From Ignicoccus islandicus DSM 13165 (GTDB lineage Archaea > Thermoproteota > Thermoprotei_A > Sulfolobales > Ignicoccaceae): 32,000 bases of DNA. A program made the translations under genes and the position numbers. Position 1 is the stretch's first letter. Every line of letters begins with the position of its first letter. A model generated the notes under the pieces. That model was not told where the DNA came from. It ran no database searches and saw nothing but the letters and a program-made list of their open reading frames with translations. Positions 23,409 to 30,185 of the stretch are shown in pieces. Where the stretch lies: positions 1,320,001-1,352,000 of the forward strand of contig NZ_CP006867.1 in the NCBI RefSeq assembly GCF_001481685.1. Reading direction: 5' to 3'.

Positions 23409-24422
23409 TTGGGATTGAAAACGAAGATTCTAACCTCTCACTCAGGAGGCTATCCGAGGCCTCCAGAATGGCGTAAGAGCATTGATGCTTATCAAGCCGG
23501 AAAGATAGATTACAAGGCCCTTATGCGGAATTGGGAACTCCAAACGAGCTCAGTTATATTTGAACAAATGGAAGAGAACATAGACATTCTAACCTCTGGC
23601 AACTTGTTTTGGGATGATCTATTCAGACCGTTTGCCAAAGCATGGGATGGAATGGAGCTACCTGAAGTTGGTGGATATTACAGGTTTTACGAGCTCAACT
23701 TCTATTACAAAAGGGCAATAGTCAATGGAGAAATAAGACCGACTTATCCAGTCCTATATCACGAACAGAAGTTATTAAAAGAGCTAAATGGAAGATCTTC
23801 TAAAGTAGTAGTTCCAGGTCCATTGACTTTTGCGTTGCATGTCGAAAACAAGTACTATCCGAACATTAAATCTCTTTTAAGAGATATAACCTTAGCGCTC
23901 GCAACGGAGCTTGAGATGGTTAAGGACTTCGTGGACTATATTCAAGTGGATGAACCAGCATTAGTTGATCCAGAGGTTAACGACGAGTTAAAGGGCCTTG
24001 CGATTCATTTCATTAATGAATTATCAGCGTTGACTGACGAGAAGAAGATAATAGTTAAGACCTATTTCAAACCAGCAACGGACATTTACCATCTAATAGA
24101 AGATCTGGAGGTTAGCGGGATAGGTTTCGATGCTGTAAGTTGGAATTATGAAGATATGAAGGAAACAGTATCCGAATACGGATATCCTTTCGATGTCCTA
24201 GATCTCGGTATCGGGGATGCATTAAATGTAAGACTTGAACCAGTCGAAGAAACCGTAGGTAAAGTAATAGGATTAATGGATGAAATAAAGGTTAAGGAAC
24301 TACATATCTCTCATAACTATCGACTTGATCTGCTACCCTATTCGCATATTCGAAAGAAACTGAGGAGACTTAGCGAGATAGTCATTAATCTAAGAAGACG
24401 TATTCTTGAGGAGGTGGAGTAA
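23409..24422 (+). CDS. MetE-like protein, non-catalytic (N-terminal-half-like) subunit of split cobalamin-independent methionine synthase
   Basis: Same fold signature as the next gene (HSGGYPRP..., [10 protein letters not shown]) but without the His-x-Cys and Cys zinc ligands. It is immediately upstream of, and overlapping, the catalytic half. Confidence 0.65.
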
Positions 24423-24423
24423 C

Positions 24424-25458
24424 GTGAGTAACGCATATAAAATACCCAAAGTACTACCGACCACTGTTGTCGGAAGCTATCCAAAGTTTCCCGAAGCTAA
24501 GAAAGCGTTAAAATTATATGAGAAAGGCGAAATAAGTGAGGAAGAATTCGAACAACTCATTAAGGAAGCGATAAGAAAGGCAGTTGAAGACCAGATTGAA
24601 GCAGGAATAGACATAATCTCTGATGGTGAGCAAAGAAGGGAAGATATGGAAGTTTACTTTGCAGAGCGTCTTGAGGGATTCGTGGTCGGAAACAATCCTG
24701 AAGATTGGGTTAGAATATTCGATAATGTACATTATAGGAAACCCATAGTAGTTGGTAAAATTGCTTGGAAAGGACCTATGACCTTAACCGATTGGAAATA
24801 TGCAACCGAATTCTCTCAAGGGAGACCCGTAAAGGCTATAATAACCGGGCCGTATACCATGGCTGACTGGGCCTTCGATAATTACTATGGCGACAAAAGG
24901 GAACTAATAATTGATTTGGCTAAAGCTCTACAGAAAGAGCTGAAAATTCTCTACGAAGCCGGAGCTAGATTCCTTCAAGTTGACGAACCGGCCTTATCAA
25001 CCCATCCCTACAAAGACGATATTGAAATAGCAAAGGAAGCGCTTTCCATAGTCTTTAGCGGAATGGAGGATGCTAAGAAAATAGTACATATATGCCATGG
25101 AAGAGTAGAGAAGTTATTCCCAGATATTCTAGATTATCCTGTTGATCAATTCGATTTAGAATTCGTAAATAACAACTTCAAATTACTTGAGGCAATAAAG
25201 GAATATGATTACGCATCTAGCGGAAAAGAGCTCGGGTACGGAGTAATAGACATTCACTCGAAAAAGGTCGAAACTAAGGATTTCATAAAGAACGCAATTT
25301 ATAGAGTACTTGAAATTATGCCACCAGAGAAGGTCTACGTCAAACCCGATTGCGGTTTAAAAATACTGGGTGATAGGGACATAGCCTTCAAGAAAATGAA
25401 GGTGATGGTAGAAGCTACAAAGGAGGTTAGAAAGGAACTCGGGTACGACGAAAGTTAA
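24424..25458 (+). CDS. metE: cobalamin-independent methionine synthase, catalytic (C-terminal-half-like) protein
   Basis: [35 protein letters not shown] (His/Cys Zn ligands) and VKPDCGLK (Cys ligand). GTG at 24424 is preceded by GAGGAGGTGGAG (SD-like), so I prefer it to the track start at 24406. Confidence 0.85.
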
Positions 25459-26117
25459 GCTATTTTGCTCCCATATATCTCGAGTAGCTGACACTTGTCT
25501 TTCAACTTTTTCAATCTATCTGATAGCTCAGTTAATGAAGTAACCTCTATTTCGTTCTTGCCAAATCCCATTTGGACTCTAGTTAGATCCGGACATATGT
25601 CTCCCTTTAGTACTATGTTGCAAGCATCACCGCTCAATAAACCTTCTATGTAAATACAAGTATCTCTCGTAGTCATATAAAGGAAATCAGTAATCTTCTC
25701 TATAGACTTCTTAGCTGCGAAGTGAACGTATGATGGTTTGAAAGTTAACGACTTCCTTGAAGGGATCGGCATTGAGACCCTTGCTTCAGGGTTATCTCGT
25801 AAATCAACCTCTATTTTCTCCTCATCTAGTTGAATTATCTCAGCTACGCCTTCTACAGAGACCAAGGCCCTTTGAAAAATATCGACAGCTTCCGAACCGC
25901 GTAGCGTTCTTCCCTTATAGATTACCTCTAATCCTATTATGACGTTTCTTAGTATTTCAACGTATATTGTAATAGGACTTCCGTCAAGAACTCCATCAAC
26001 TGAAATCCTTCCTACGAAATTCTCCGAACTCAGTTCTTCAATTAAATCGAGTAAGCTGTACTCTTGAGGCGAAACTCTCTTGAACCCTATGGTCTTTCCA
26101 GAACTTATGAATGGCAT
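25455..26117 (-). CDS. hypothetical protein with DUF4388/PATAN-like N-terminal module
   Basis: [62 protein letters not shown] resembles the DUF4388 pattern (L.dLlq.l....tG.L.v......i.f..G.iv.A......G.eAl). It is the last gene of the four-gene minus operon. By-eye assignment. Confidence 0.5.
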
Positions 26118-26123
26118 CTAATT

Positions 26124-26567
26124 TCACACCTCCTTGAGGTCTTCTATTATTTTATCGAAGTTTGGCGCGTTAGGTGATAAAATAAATAATGATACAACTG
26201 ATGAATCTTTTAAAATCAATATAAAGAGATGGTTCTGGAATTGATCCTTGCGTGTTTCAACGAAAGCCATTAACTCTTCCAATTCATCTCGGAGTGCCTT
26301 GAAGTACTGTGAATTAAAGTTCTCTATATCATTTAATAGGACTATTGAGGACTCATGTAGTACTATTCGAGGCTTTTCGTTTAAGATCTTTTCTTCTTTC
26401 GGTTTGACCTTATATCCAAGTAACTTGTATTTGAGTAATTCCTTTCTCCCATGAACCATTATTTTAGAGGTTAGTCTGCCTATTTCATCTAGTTCTTTAG
26501 CCATTTCCTCGATGACTTTCTTACTTTTCTCGATAAACTCTTCTGGACCGTGTGCAACTATTATCAT
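26124..26567 (-). CDS. hypothetical charged/coiled-coil-like protein
   Basis: 147-aa, K/E-rich ORF. It has a 4-nt overlap with the upstream gene and a 6-nt gap to the downstream gene. Confidence 0.45.
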   Translation of the reverse strand: MIIVAHGPEEFIEKSKKVIEEMAKELDEIGRLTSKIMVHGRKELLKYKLLGYKVKPKEEKILNEKPRIVLHESSIVLLNDIENFNSQYFKALRDELEELMAFVETRKDQFQNHLFILILKDSSVVSLFILSPNAPNFDKIIEDLKEV

Positions 26568-27301
26568 ATCTTAATGACCCCCGTAACTACTTCTCGTGCC
26601 TTATTGATAAGGTTCTCATCAATTACGAAATTGATTGGTGCACAGTAAGTTGGTTTAGAAAATGTTACTATCCACTTACCTGAGCTTCCAAGGGGGTATT
26701 GGAAGGCATCCACACCGTAGATCGCACCCACTTGTTCTGGCATAGTTAGAGAGGCACCTATTATCGTTTTATTACATTTCACTACATCCAATATCCATCT
26801 ATCGTTTACTGAGACTATATTATACGCTACATCTTCTTCCGATCCTAGGAGTTCTCTAAGTTCCGAAGGTGGATCAGGAACATCGAGTAACATACTTCCC
26901 CAATTATCCGTATCTACTGAAACGGACGAAGGTTCGAATAATTGAACTACCGGTATTACCGTGCCGTTCAAAACGAGCGCTTCTCTTACTCTTATTTCTT
27001 TAACTAGTGTTAAGAGAGATTCGGGCGATTCTAGTTTTATGTAGTCTGGGTCCATCATCTCTATGAATAGTTCCTCCGAACTCATCTTTATGAACGTTAT
27101 TTCTATTTTACTTGGAATTGAAAACGCCGCCAAGTCACCTTTGAATGCTATCGCTACACCATCTGTAATGAGAATATCTAGCGGTGGCCATTTTACATTG
27201 AGTCTCCCGCTTAATCCAGCACTCCTAATTTCTTGTAGTGCTTCGAAGAGCGTATTGAATTTCTTATAGAACGTGCCACAACTCCAACAGACGTTACTCA
27301 T
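26564..27301 (-). CDS. hypothetical protein with N-terminal CxxC and two DUF4388/PATAN-like modules
   Basis: The first module is MSNVCWSCG...LFEALQEIRSAGLSGRLNVKWPPLDILITDGVAIAF. The second is VNDRWILDVVKCNKTIIGASL...AIYGVDAF. By-eye assignment. Confidence 0.5.
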   Translation of the reverse strand: MSNVCWSCGTFYKKFNTLFEALQEIRSAGLSGRLNVKWPPLDILITDGVAIAFKGDLAAFSIPSKIEITFIKMSSEELFIEMMDPDYIKLESPESLLTLVKEIRVREALVLNGTVIPVVQLFEPSSVSVDTDNWGSMLLDVPDPPSELRELLGSEEDVAYNIVSVNDRWILDVVKCNKTIIGASLTMPEQVGAIYGVDAFQYPLGSSGKWIVTFSKPTYCAPINFVIDENLINKAREVVTGVIKI

Positions 27302-27307
27302 GGCTTC

Positions 27308-27877
27308 CTACCCTGGGACAACCCTTTTTACACCTAATGGAGAGAGGTATTCTAATGCGATTTCCTCAATACGACTCCAAGGCACATCTTCATTACTCTC
27401 TATTCTCAAAAACGCGATCTTCTTTTTCACTTGTAGACTGAAATCCGTTATTTCAATGCCCAAAGCCTCGAGACGATAAAGCAGACCTAGTACTGCTTTT
27501 CCTAAAGCCACAATACCAGCAGAGGAAATGTAGTGAGATTCCGTGTCAAATGTAATTAGAGAGTCGGCGGTCATTTCACTCAAGCTTGAAACTTCCGGTG
27601 GAGGCGCTGAGAACAAGACCGTGACTATATCCTTATCATCGCCTATTTTTTCAAAGAACTTGGAATATTCAACTTCGTTGCCATTTATTGTGGCTTTGAT
27701 AATTTCTCCATTACACATAATTAATATGCCAGAGTTCCCTTTCTTACTATTAAGAATAGTTATTTGAGTACATACTGAAGGCAACATATTTTCAATCGCA
27801 TTACGTATACACTTCAAGCTCCCACTTGAAAGACCGTAAGGAACTTGAGAACTCATAGGTGCATTCTTCCCCATCAT
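27308..27877 (-). CDS. hypothetical protein with DUF4388/PATAN-like module
   Basis: SLKCIRNAIENMLPSVCTQITILNSKKGNSGILIMCNGEIIKATINGNEVEYSKFFEKIG. It is the first gene of the minus operon, with a T/A-rich element directly upstream of the ATG. Confidence 0.5.
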   Translation of the reverse strand: MMGKNAPMSSQVPYGLSSGSLKCIRNAIENMLPSVCTQITILNSKKGNSGILIMCNGEIIKATINGNEVEYSKFFEKIGDDKDIVTVLFSAPPPEVSSLSEMTADSLITFDTESHYISSAGIVALGKAVLGLLYRLEALGIEITDFSLQVKKKIAFLRIESNEDVPWSRIEEIALEYLSPLGVKRVVPG

Positions 27878-27935
27878 GATTTTATTGAAATAAAAATAAA
27901 CTTAGTCATACAGTTAGCTTAGGGGTATAACAGTT
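27878..27935. promoter_or_regulatory. 58-bp AT-rich divergent promoter spacer
   Basis: gattttattgaaataaaaataaacttagtcatacagttagcttaggggtataacagtt. It has TATA-like A/T blocks facing both operons. Confidence 0.4.
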
Positions 27936-28547
27936 TTGGAAGGTGAAGGAAAGGAAACAAAGGGCGTGAGAAAGATTTCAACTACGACCGATATAATGAA
28001 TGCAATTAAAAACGTGGAACGGGGAATTGCAATACTCTTAGTACTTAAGAAGGACTTAACGTGGGAACGCTATATTTTACACATAGAGAATAAAAGGATA
28101 ATTTCCGGTGAACCCAAAATACCCTCTGAACGAGATTTGAAGGATTCATTAATGTCGCTTCTCGTCTTACCACGTGTCCGAATCATCGAGGAAGGAATCG
28201 AAAGAATGGTTGAAAGCGCGGGGCTTGACGTGGAGACCCTTCCGGAAGATGTGAAGAGGCTAGTTCAACTAATTCCGGGTATTGAACTGTTCATTCCAGA
28301 CAAGGAACTTGTGGAAGCTAACGTGAGCGAAACTGTTATCCCAATAAATGAAGTAGTGGACGAAGTCGTTAGGATAGTTGAGAACATGATTGAGGAAATG
28401 GGTCTCAAAGGTGAGGTAAAAGTAGTAAACAGAGAGTTAAATATTGTAATCAGTAAGAGGGTTCCGAAGAAACTGGTACAACGATTAGAAAAAGCTCTCA
28501 AGGCAAGGTTAGGCGATATGTATGAGATCAAAATAACTACGGGGTGA
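27936..28547 (+). CDS. hypothetical protein with DUF4388/PATAN-like module
   Basis: DIMNAIKNVERGIAILLVLKKDLTWERYILHIENKRIISGE. The start is uncertain: TTG at 27936, GTG at 27966 or ATG at 27996. Confidence 0.45.
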   Translation: MEGEGKETKGVRKISTTTDIMNAIKNVERGIAILLVLKKDLTWERYILHIENKRIISGEPKIPSERDLKDSLMSLLVLPRVRIIEEGIERMVESAGLDVETLPEDVKRLVQLIPGIELFIPDKELVEANVSETVIPINEVVDEVVRIVENMIEEMGLKGEVKVVNRELNIVISKRVPKKLVQRLEKALKARLGDMYEIKITTG

Positions 28548-28554
28548 TGTAGAA

Positions 28555-29469
28555 ATGATACTATTCTTCGGTAAGAAGAAGAAAAAGAGAGAAGATACTG
28601 TCATTGTAGGGGTAGAGAAGGATAACGTCTTCGGAACTATGAGTCCTAAAGGAGGAGTTGGAAAAACTAGCATAACTGTTGAAGTAGCATCATTAATTAC
28701 ACTCAAGGATATGTCAGTTGCACTAGTTGACTGGGATCTGTGGTCTCCTAGGCTCACGAGCAGGTTAATTGGAGTAAACGAAGGTCCTGGCCTCTTAGAA
28801 CTCCTCTTAGGTGAAGCAGAGCCTGACGAGGTACTCAGAAACGTCGATTTCACTACGACCTCCGGTAAATTAATTCGATTCAAAGTTGTGCCTGCTTCCG
28901 ATAAAGAGGCGTTAACCAAGGGCTTAATGAAGAGGTTAGCAACTGAATTGGAAGAAAAGTACGATGAGATAAAGGAAAGAGCAATTAATCTCTCGAATTA
29001 CTTAGCTAGTACCACTGACATCGTCTTTAATGATTATCCCGTACCAAGCGGCCCAGCTCCAGCTCCCTTCCATAAAATTGCAGCTAGCGCCACCCATTGG
29101 CTAAATATAGTCATAGATGCTGTCCCAACAACTGCGGAGTACGCGGCAAGATACGTAGAGATGTTCTACCCAACTCTCCCGATATTCATCGTATTCGTAA
29201 ACATGATAAGACCAGTTCATCACGAATATAGCGCGGCTGTTGCGAGAGCACCCGAGCTATGTAAGAAGTTCGCTGCTAAGTACGTAGCCTTCGTTCCATT
29301 CGACGGTAAGCTTTACGACGTAAAAGTATCTGGGGCAGCTCCCCCAGCAAGTATAAACTATAAGCCCACGGAGTCTGACGCTCTAAAAGTACTTCGAGAT
29401 GCTGCTATGAAGATAGCGCGTAGAGAGAACCCAGCTGGATGCGTTGCATTACACTTGAAAGTACTCTAA
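28555..29469 (+). CDS. MinD/ParA-family (SIMIBI) P-loop ATPase
   Basis: Deviant Walker A with signature lysine (SPKGGVGKTS), Walker A' (ALVDWDLWSP), a MinD-like GLLELLLGEAEPDEVL segment, and Walker B (DIVFNDYP). The N-terminal lysine-rich tail reads FFGKKKKKRED. Confidence 0.75.
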   Translation: MILFFGKKKKKREDTVIVGVEKDNVFGTMSPKGGVGKTSITVEVASLITLKDMSVALVDWDLWSPRLTSRLIGVNEGPGLLELLLGEAEPDEVLRNVDFTTTSGKLIRFKVVPASDKEALTKGLMKRLATELEEKYDEIKERAINLSNYLASTTDIVFNDYPVPSGPAPAPFHKIAASATHWLNIVIDAVPTTAEYAARYVEMFYPTLPIFIVFVNMIRPVHHEYSAAVARAPELCKKFAAKYVAFVPFDGKLYDVKVSGAAPPASINYKPTESDALKVLRDAAMKIARRENPAGCVALHLKVL

Positions 29470-29490
29470 TCTTAGAAATATTATAGGTAG

Positions 29491-29817
29491 GTGATTAGCG
29501 TGAATCAGTGGAAGGAAGAGATACGAAAGGTCCCCGGATATGAAATAGAATGGTACGCCGTGTTCGAAATTACTGAAGGTAATCTAGAATTGCTTGACAA
29601 GGAATCAGTCTCTATTGAGGTCCTACGTAAAATAGAGCCTATGGTAGCTAGTGTGATTCATGACTTAAAAGCCATTTCGGAAGCAGAACTGAGAGACGAA
29701 CCTATGGAGAAAAGGAAGTTAGACGTACTTGTTAATACAGAGAAAGGATTTATTAGTATGAGTTTAGTGTCCGATAGCATACTTGTAATCGCTTCACTGA
29801 GAAAGAAAGAATTTTAA
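29491..29817 (+). CDS. Roadblock/LC7 (MglB-like) domain protein, candidate
   Basis: 108 aa. EEIRKVPGYEIEWYAVFEITEGNLE ... LDVLVNTEKGFISMSLVSDSILVIASL fits the Robl_LC7 pattern (vpGv.ga.lv..dG ... vlveTekGyvvl......Lvvla). GTG start. Confidence 0.5.
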   Translation: MISVNQWKEEIRKVPGYEIEWYAVFEITEGNLELLDKESVSIEVLRKIEPMVASVIHDLKAISEAELRDEPMEKRKLDVLVNTEKGFISMSLVSDSILVIASLRKKEF

Positions 29818-30185
29818 AGTCTTATTATAGCAACCCTAGGTCTCAATCCATCCCATATCGCTTCAACTTCTATTTCGGATTCTAATTCTGGTTCCGAAAA
29901 GATTGATCTAAATATAGCTATTGAGGACCGTAGTGTACTTAGGGACTTCATCGTATATGTGAGAACCCTCAGGGTCTGCTTAATTACCATTTCCTTATTC
30001 GGATCGACCAATATGGTTATACCAGGATAACTAGCGGAACCCTCGCCTTCTCCAGTCCATTCCTCTTCTATGATATTTAGAACTCTCTGAAGGTTCTCTT
30101 TACTTATATTAACTGAGTTCTCCATATCAGATAGAAGTTCTTTTAGACTATTGTACTTCTTTACTTCTAAAGGCATTTCCACCAA
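29814..30185 (-). CDS. hypothetical protein
   Basis: 123-aa ORF starting 16 nt downstream of the pepA stop, co-directional. Its stop overlaps the stop of the convergent 29491-29817 gene. Confidence 0.4.
   Translation of the reverse strand: MVEMPLEVKKYNSLKELLSDMENSVNISKENLQRVLNIIEEEWTGEGEGSASYPGITILVDPNKEMVIKQTLRVLTYTMKSLSTLRSSIAIFRSIFSEPELESEIEVEAIWDGLRPRVAIIRL

Follow-up and report, generated by a model that had tools for sequence, protein, structure and literature searches.

A conserved eight-gene block around a divergent MinD-type ATPase in Ignicoccus and its uncultured close relatives

Background

In the genome of Ignicoccus islandicus DSM 13165, we analyzed a stretch of 32,000 nucleotides (contig NZ_CP006867.1, positions 1,320,001 to 1,352,000; hereafter, the window) and found in it a block of eight genes that centers on a divergent, predicted MinD-type ATPase. 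The genes are real: they are conserved in seven other loci, and their proteins have been detected in I. hospitalis. The block is confined to Ignicoccus and a few uncultured close relatives. It is most likely an ATP-dependent positioning or assembly switch with novel partners. We assign a probability of roughly 40% to the complete reading, namely, a constitutively expressed module that is specific to the Ignicoccus lineage, is built around the ATPase, and works by the mechanism proposed below.

MinD/ParA ATPases are general-purpose positioning switches in prokaryotes, and each of their new partner sets has revealed a new cellular process. To our knowledge, no other cultivated archaea have a cell plan as unusual as that of Ignicoccus, for which no structural determinant is known.

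The original prediction for this DNA described a divergent cluster of seven genes that encoded four paralogous DUF4388/PATAN-like proteins, a MinD/ParA-type ATPase, and a Roadblock/LC7-like protein in a "Sulfolobales-type" host, and it claimed that no system of such composition had been characterized. We also found no such system in the literature, and a search there for studies on the genes of the block gave none. As the 220-aa protein of the cluster is identical to EYM_07665 of I. islandicus DSM 13165, the host is assigned here to the genus Ignicoccus in the order Desulfurococcales, instead of to a Sulfolobales-type archaeon.

Results

Each gene of the block is named here by the length of its product in amino acid residues (aa). 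The minus arm consists, from its first gene onward, of g189 (27308-27877; I. hospitalis orthologue, Iho_0743), g245 (26564-27301; Iho_0744), g147 (26124-26567; Iho_0745), and g220 (25455-26117; EYM_07665; Iho_0746), all of which encode ORFans. The plus arm consists of g203 (27936-28547; Iho_0742), which also encodes an ORFan, g304 (28555-29469; EYM_07690; Iho_0741) for the predicted MinD/ParA-superfamily ATPase, and g108 (29491-29817; Iho_0740) for a protein with a predicted Roadblock/LC7 fold. In the list of open reading frames (ORFs), the coordinates and strands of all seven genes of the original prediction were reproduced, and the peptide strings that it cited were all present in the translations. 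The junctions were also the same, +6, -4, and +6 nt in the minus arm, where the start of g147 overlaps the stop of g245 by 4 nt, and +7 and +21 nt in the plus arm. As the junctions are tight (-4 to +21 nt), the two arms indicate two operons. The extent of the cluster had been slightly underestimated: an eighth member, g123 (29814-30185, minus strand; Iho_0739), which encodes an ORFan of 123 aa, had been overlooked. This gene is convergent with g108, and the two overlap by 4 nt at the stop of g108.

Between the arms lies an AT-rich spacer (27878-27935), whose predicted length of 58 bp was confirmed and whose G+C content is 26%. It carries an A/T-rich, TATA-like element, ATAAAAATAAAC in I. islandicus and ATAGAAAAATAA(A/G)GCT in the relatives, and this A-rich element is conserved across the orthologous spacers in an alignment of six. 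The spacer may thus function as a divergent promoter. The G+C content of the block (0.38-0.43) is the same as that of the rest of the window, and scans for tRNAs and Rfam families found nothing in the window. Two starts are ambiguous. The longest ORF of g108 begins at the GTG at 29491 (108 aa), versus a start 9 nt downstream (105 aa) that the gene caller set on the identical contigs, and g189 has 189 aa here versus 182 aa as called on L003.

With a profile of the ATPase, we found loci in I. pacificus (L004), in a metagenome-assembled genome (MAG) from the Desulfurococcales (L005), and in a Thermoproteota MAG (L006). Exact-protein look-ups added three more, namely L007, L008, and the I. hospitalis-type contig L017. 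The g203 family, when used to scan metagenomes, gave a single further locus, L016. Gene order and orientation are the same in the window and in L004, L005, L007, L008, L016, and L017. The block was counted as complete in these six other loci and as partial in two that lie at contig ends; L006 ends inside the ATPase gene, and L016 contains no g220. By tblastn, each gene of the block was present in each of the seven other loci that reached that far. The identity of the orthologues to the window proteins was 23-83% overall; it was highest in the ATPase (68-83%) and g203 (51-68%) and lower in g245 (40-57%), g108 (41-51%), g147 (29-51%), g123 (31-49%), g220 (32-45%, in six loci), and g189, the least conserved (23-41%). 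The genes are therefore syntenic and co-oriented in related genomes.

In all three Ignicoccus species, the block occupies the same locus, with methionine synthase and PepA as the outer flanks. L007, which is from a MAG, has an ABC transporter and ribosomal genes next to the block at one end and SufC/SufBD next to it at the other, and the eight genes are again together. The g123 gene adjoins the Roadblock gene in all loci that extend that far, including L007 with its different flanks. As all eight genes stay together within both sets of flanks, we regard the unit as consisting of eight genes, not seven.

In Table S1 of the proteome study of I. hospitalis and Nanoarchaeum equitans (PMC3149612), Iho_0739 to Iho_0746 are found in the same order and with matching sizes, and all eight proteins were detected by proteomics, both in pure culture and in co-culture. 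The adjusted spectral counts (pure culture / co-culture) are 220 / 250 for the ATPase Iho_0741 (302 aa), which is the most abundant protein of the block, 84 / 55 for Iho_0742 (199 aa), 58 / 42 for Iho_0743 (212 aa), 54 / 51 for Iho_0746 (220 aa), 38 / 39 for Iho_0739 (122 aa), 38 / 29 for Iho_0740 (108 aa), 31 / 25 for Iho_0745 (151 aa), and 28 / 36 for Iho_0744 (244 aa) (PMC3149612). In the same table, an arCOG is assigned to the ATPase only (586, ParA family, class D), and none of the eight proteins is flagged for a signal peptide or a transmembrane segment (PMC3149612).

Judging from its sequence, the g304 protein is an ATPase of the MinD/ParA superfamily with a deviant Walker A motif (SPKGGVGKTS, with the signature lysine K32), the switch I motif VDWDLW, and the Walker B motif DIVFNDYP. 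It passes the Pfam models ParA (33.1 bits; cut-off 27.1) and CbiA (29.8 bits; cut-off 25.4). In an alignment of nine family members, including paralogues at 25-41% identity, G27, K32, G33, G34, G36, T38, E43, D59-W60-D61, R66, and R70 are invariant, as are D155, N159-D160, D188, N216, P220, and P248-F249-D250. Because the motif residues are invariant in the nine members, the catalytic apparatus of a dimerizing deviant-Walker-A ATPase is intact.

When the PDB was searched with a broad family profile, the best relatives were MinD-1 of A. fulgidus (1hyq; E=5e-13) and Aquifex MinD (4v03; E=6e-12; alignment of nearly the full length, residues 23-255), followed by Pyrococcus MinD, FleN, and Soj, with Soj and ParA ranked below MinD and FleN. 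With a narrow profile of the orthologues, BY-kinases, MinD, and Cfd1/Mrp were about equidistant from g304. Together with the two Pfam matches, the ranking of MinD at the top of the PDB relatives supports an ATPase that is nearer to MinD than to the partition ParAs; the original prediction had judged it to be more MinD-like than SegA-like. No curated orthologous group was found for it: all NCBIfam equivalogs scored far under their cut-offs, including the KGGVGR-variant AAA model (37 bits versus 90), MrpORP as the second-best match (30.5 versus 450), the BY-kinase (Wzc/Etk/CapB) model TIGR03018 (28.4 versus 230.65), ParA_partition (NF041546; 25 versus 180), ApbC (21.3 versus 348), and SopA (14 versus 725). 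The tyrosine cluster that BY-kinases have at the C-terminus was also not found in g304, which ends in ...ENPAGCVALHLKVL and has no tyrosine there.

The resemblance to the MinD family (1hyq, 4v02/4v03, FleN/FlhG) extends over the deviant Walker A with the signature lysine, the D-x-D of switch I, and the hhhhD-x-P of Walker B, and g304 has N-x-x-P and P-F-D at the positions of the base-recognition and IPxD elements of MinD. Its length of about 300 aa is similar, and its extreme C-terminus is short and hydrophobic or amphipathic where bacterial MinD has its membrane-targeting sequence. However, g304 is far under the equivalog cut-offs of bacterial MinD (TIGR01968; 22.5 versus 212.9 bits) and archaeal MinD (TIGR01969; 16.5 versus 201.75 bits), and it differs from MinD in a unique, invariant insert after Walker B (YPVPSGPAPAPFH...THWLN) and in a hydrophobic-polybasic N-terminus; the block also has no MinC, MinE, or FtsZ context. 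Both the N-terminus (MI(L/F)FFGKKKK) and the hydrophobic tail at the C-terminus (GCVALHLKVL) are conserved throughout the complete orthologues, and they are candidate membrane-targeting peptides.

In an exhaustive HMMER search that covered 1.84 billion representative proteins, only six full-length clusters of this ATPase family at 50% identity were found (647, 282, 182, 101, 89, and 78 bits); the matches below them, at 61 bits or less, were of the generic Walker-A kind. The neighbors of the paralogous ATPases are quite different from the block. One of the six clusters is a second family member in I. islandicus, EYM_05150 (L014, 2193-3113), which is 26% identical and has the Walker A sequence KGGAGRT. 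Its flanking genes encode a 198-aa ORFan and a 371-aa protein that has a hydrophobic region in its C-terminal part. As EYM_05150 has other flanking genes, the orphan ATPase family has been recruited to different partner sets. In the same MAG as L007, the gene of the paralogue P0009 (L012, 8001-9877) shares 4 nt with the Peptidase_M50/PDZ (site-2 protease) gene downstream of it, which hints at a membrane-associated role, at least in the case of P0009. The nearest outgroup ATPase is P0007 (L009, 1864-7467; 282 bits), on a contig with 62% G+C. Upstream of its gene is that of a 678-aa metallophosphatase-like surface protein with a Thr-rich linker and a C-terminal anchor, and after it come a convergent 131-aa gene and genes for proteins of 250, 196, and 233 aa. 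No neighbor of the outgroup and paralogous ATPases (L009, L011, L012, and L014) resembled the accessory families significantly. In L009, the proteins of 233 and 196 aa are end-to-end collinear with g245 and g189, respectively, at about 24% identity, which is not significant, and they may be very distant versions of the two.

The 108-aa protein had been called Roadblock/LC7-like in the original prediction, and this call holds at the level of the fold but not at that of the Pfam family. Searches with g108 of Pfam, including Robl_LC7 (PF03259), and of NCBIfam gave no family at E≤1. A single-sequence AlphaFold2 model (pLDDT 75.5; pTM 0.66) has the topology α-β-β-α-β-β-β (helices, 4-12 and 42-66; strands, 17-28, 31-38, 79-83, 86-92, and 97-105). 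All of the top 50 Foldseek matches of the model in the PDB were dynein LC7/Roadblock, LAMTOR/Ragulator, and Asgard Roadblock or longin structures, with probabilities of 0.96-1.0, TM scores of 0.38-0.60, a best E-value of 6.6e-3, and sequence identities of 6-23%. The model thus supports g108 as a very divergent protein of the predicted Roadblock fold. It has this topology in common with the Roadblock proteins of the MglA-MglB, Ragulator/LAMTOR-Rag, and Asgard systems (7f8m, 9jue), and its gene directly follows that of a P-loop NTPase, just as mglB adjoins mglA. Unlike in those systems, the neighboring NTPase is a MinD-like ATPase of the SIMIBI class and not a Ras-like GTPase, and g108 is unseen by the Robl_LC7 model and has Foldseek E-values of at least 6.6e-3. 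No GTPase domain that could be a Ras-like partner was found in the eight proteins or in the immediate flanks.

With 59 invariant residues, g203 is by far the most conserved accessory protein and comes close to the ATPase in this respect. In its basic N-terminal tail, K9 is invariant, and so is, farther on, a block that includes E93, S94, G96-L97-D98, L102-P103, D105, Q111, I113-P114-G115-I116, L118-F119-I120-P121-D122-K123, L125, and E127-A128. It matched no family in Pfam or NCBIfam. A match to Rev7/HORMA at E=0.05 weakened to E=0.13 when eight sequences were used, and we treated it as noise because it became weaker with more sequences. The g245 protein has 43 invariant residues, including W6, G9, C176, C220, and M187-P188-E189, and C36 and C55 are invariant in g189; neither protein had a family match in Pfam or NCBIfam or a credible relative in PDB profile searches. 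Read from its sequence, g147 is mostly helical with a C-terminal beta hairpin, and it had no match in Pfam or NCBIfam. In g220, an N-terminal helix is followed by a beta-rich module. This protein had no match in Pfam, NCBIfam, PADLOC, PHROG, or the PDB, and a search for its homologues returned only itself. For g123, there was no family match in Pfam or NCBIfam and nothing credible in a PDB sequence profile search. A concatenated alignment of the seven accessory families also returned nothing when used as a query, and in PADLOC and PHROGs no accessory protein matched; of the block, the P-loop region of the ATPase alone did so.

Directly upstream of the block are two tandem, overlapping ORFs on the plus strand (23409-24422 and 24406-25458; 337 and 350 aa), which are related to cobalamin-independent methionine synthase (Meth_synt_1 / Meth_synt_2). 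The pair, which looks like a split or duplicated MetE, also adjoins the block in I. pacificus, the I. hospitalis-type contig, and L005. A few kb beyond the block, on its downstream side, the Ignicoccus-type loci share a divergent NurA-HerA pair (8912-11772 of L001, the window's own contig, about 1.5 kb beyond the end of the window; 6915-9779 of L008; 9650-12468 of L017). This adjacency is probably ordinary synteny that is unrelated to the block.

Discussion

By analogy with MinD and ParA, we propose that ATP binding would enable two ATPase monomers to pair, through the signature lysine K32, as a sandwich dimer. This dimer would then gain affinity for a surface, most likely a membrane, via the N-terminus MILFFGKKKKK, the tail GCVALHLKVL, or both, and it would gain affinity for partner proteins as well. 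The likely cognate partner or activator of the ATPase is g203, because its gene is adjacent to that of the ATPase and the conservation of the two proteins matches; its basic N-terminal tail with the invariant lysine is a candidate ATPase-stimulating peptide. The g108 protein may be a dimer with the role of a regulatory or platform subunit, and the scaffold, or the cargo that is assembled or positioned, may consist of g123 and the four proteins of the minus arm.

Several points weigh against this proposal. The protein-protein contacts, the membrane binding, and the ATPase activity are all properties that we infer, and the roles of the accessory proteins are guesses because six of the seven have no recognizable fold or family. 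Roadblock proteins are known to partner small Ras-like GTPases, not MinD/ParA ATPases. No cargo structure is encoded nearby. In addition, general synteny accounts for part of the conservation among close relatives, and the methionine synthase and PepA flanks are likewise conserved in four loci.

The original prediction explained the cluster as a polarity or motility switch, in which four PATAN/DUF4388 paralogues act with a Roadblock protein and a MinD-like ATPase in the manner of the bacterial PATAN/MglB/MglA circuits. PATAN domains act by protein-protein contacts with NTPase motors, for example, PilB1 (bioRxiv 10.1101/2021.06.11.447907). The Roadblock fold predicted for g108 is consistent with such a switch. 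By eye, a helix, beta strands, and a conserved G-x-(D/E)-A-hydrophobic element follow one another in the orthologues of g220, g189, and the C-terminal half of g245, and invariant residues in this element are G74 and A77 in g220 and G196, A199, and F200 in g245, with EGEEAW in most g189 orthologues. We take this pattern, as a lead, to resemble the DUF4388 consensus; it is the one point of likeness to PATAN proteins (PatA, PixE, PixG) that we found. The N-terminal half of a low-confidence, single-sequence AlphaFold2 model of g220 (pLDDT 39.4) reads H-E-E-E-E-H-E-E-E, and the fold search with this model was meaningless (TM ≤0.18, with probabilities mostly <0.25).

However, neither the paralogy nor the PATAN membership of g189, g245, g220, and g203 is supported by comparisons of their sequences; the four proteins may still share a fold. 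The recurring module of about 60 aa that had been read in these four products did not emerge from BLASTP of the pairs (E>0.5) or from two rounds of hhalign, with whole-family profiles (probability ≤4%) and with isolated modules (<5%), and the supposed common motifs are spaced differently between the families. PF14332 matched none of the four window proteins at E≤1 and none of 24 orthologues of the four families or 10 excised modules at E≤10. A tblastn search of plasmids with a PATAN-like consensus gave nothing even at E≤10. The block also differs from PATAN systems in that REC domains, type IV pilus genes, and small GTPases are absent from it and that its host is archaeal. We consider such a polarity or motility switch to be unlikely.

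A role in the segregation of the chromosome or of a DNA element, with the ATPase as a ParA-type nucleoid motor and g203 or g147 as a DNA-binding adaptor, also seems doubtful to us. A ParA-like partition protein in PHROG matched the ATPase at E=4.7e-9, and the ParA-ParB and SegA-SegB cassettes resemble the block in that a Walker-type dimerizing ATPase stands beside small partners. The basic N-terminal tail of g203 could also be likened to the ParA-activating peptides of ParB-type partners, whereas the best PDB profile match of g147, P1 ParB, is at chance level (E=0.1), and we rejected it. In contrast, every comparison places g304 nearer to MinD-type relatives than to ParA-type partition ATPases, its ParA_partition score is far under the cut-off, and MinD leads the PDB ranking given above. 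Pfam and NCBIfam detected no DNA-binding domain in the accessory proteins, and a search in and around the cluster for centromere-like or operator repeats gave no array above short chance matches. The eight genes of the block far exceed the two or three of known partition cassettes.

The invariant cysteines raise a further alternative, namely, a system for metallocenter or cofactor maturation in which cysteine-rich accessory proteins would receive or pass on a metal or cluster brought by a SIMIBI NTPase like Mrp/NBP35 or CooC. In addition to the two invariant cysteines each of g245 and g189, four are invariant in all seven orthologues of g220 (C154, C166, C175, and C209), and the ATPase has two, C236 and C296, that do not vary among its complete orthologues. 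The PDB matches of the ATPase include Cfd1 and Mrp structures, and MrpORP is its second-best NCBIfam match, but the score of the latter is a small fraction of the cut-off. The ATPase also has no CxxC or CxC after switch II, which defines the metal sites of Mrp/NBP35 and CooC; there is no cysteine from Walker B to residue 235. The spacing in g220, C-x11-C-x8-C-x33-C, is no known cluster-binding motif, and its cysteines could form disulfides or a novel metal site; the intracellular disulfides of hyperthermophilic Thermoproteota explain the cysteines equally well. In L007 (12491-14988), SufC/SufBD and the gene of an iron-dependent repressor lie some 900 bp from the block, but this adjacency occurs in one locus only and may be a coincidence. 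For these reasons, we regard the maturation of a metallocenter as rather improbable.

The block might also organize the cell architecture that only Ignicoccus has, namely, the huge intermembrane compartment with its vesicles and tubes or the contacts with the outer cellular membrane, with a Roadblock platform that regulates a membrane-binding MinD-like ATPase. The confinement of the family to Ignicoccus and its close uncultured relatives, the expression of the eight proteins, and the candidate membrane-targeting peptides at both ends of the ATPase make this compatible with the data, and we rate it as a long shot. If true, prokaryotes would have a counterpart of the Roadblock/longin-NTPase modules by which eukaryotes control membrane traffic.

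Finally, a mobile defense or selfish island that was fixed by chance in the lineage is barely credible: the different genomic context of L007 and a weak PADLOC match of the Walker A region alone of the ATPase to the candidate system PDC-M28B (E=9e-5) would fit it, but Pfam and NCBIfam showed no integrase, transposase, nuclease, or toxin domains, the accessory proteins have no PADLOC or PHROG matches, the G+C content matches that of the window, the locus is the same in all three Ignicoccus species, and the protein levels are steady and moderately high with or without Nanoarchaeum (PMC3149612).

Conclusions

The reading that we prefer, an ATP-dependent positioning or assembly switch, ties an orphan branch of the MinD/ParA ATPases to seven proteins whose relatives are confined to one lineage, and among them is one with a predicted Roadblock fold. 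Such a set of partners, with a Roadblock-fold protein and ORFans, is unprecedented for the MinD/ParA positioning theme. Even if its function should turn out to be ordinary, the block would add a new subfamily to the MinD ATPases and a very divergent member to the Roadblock proteins. The cluster is a testable entry point, as I. hospitalis makes all eight proteins and can be cultivated and imaged.

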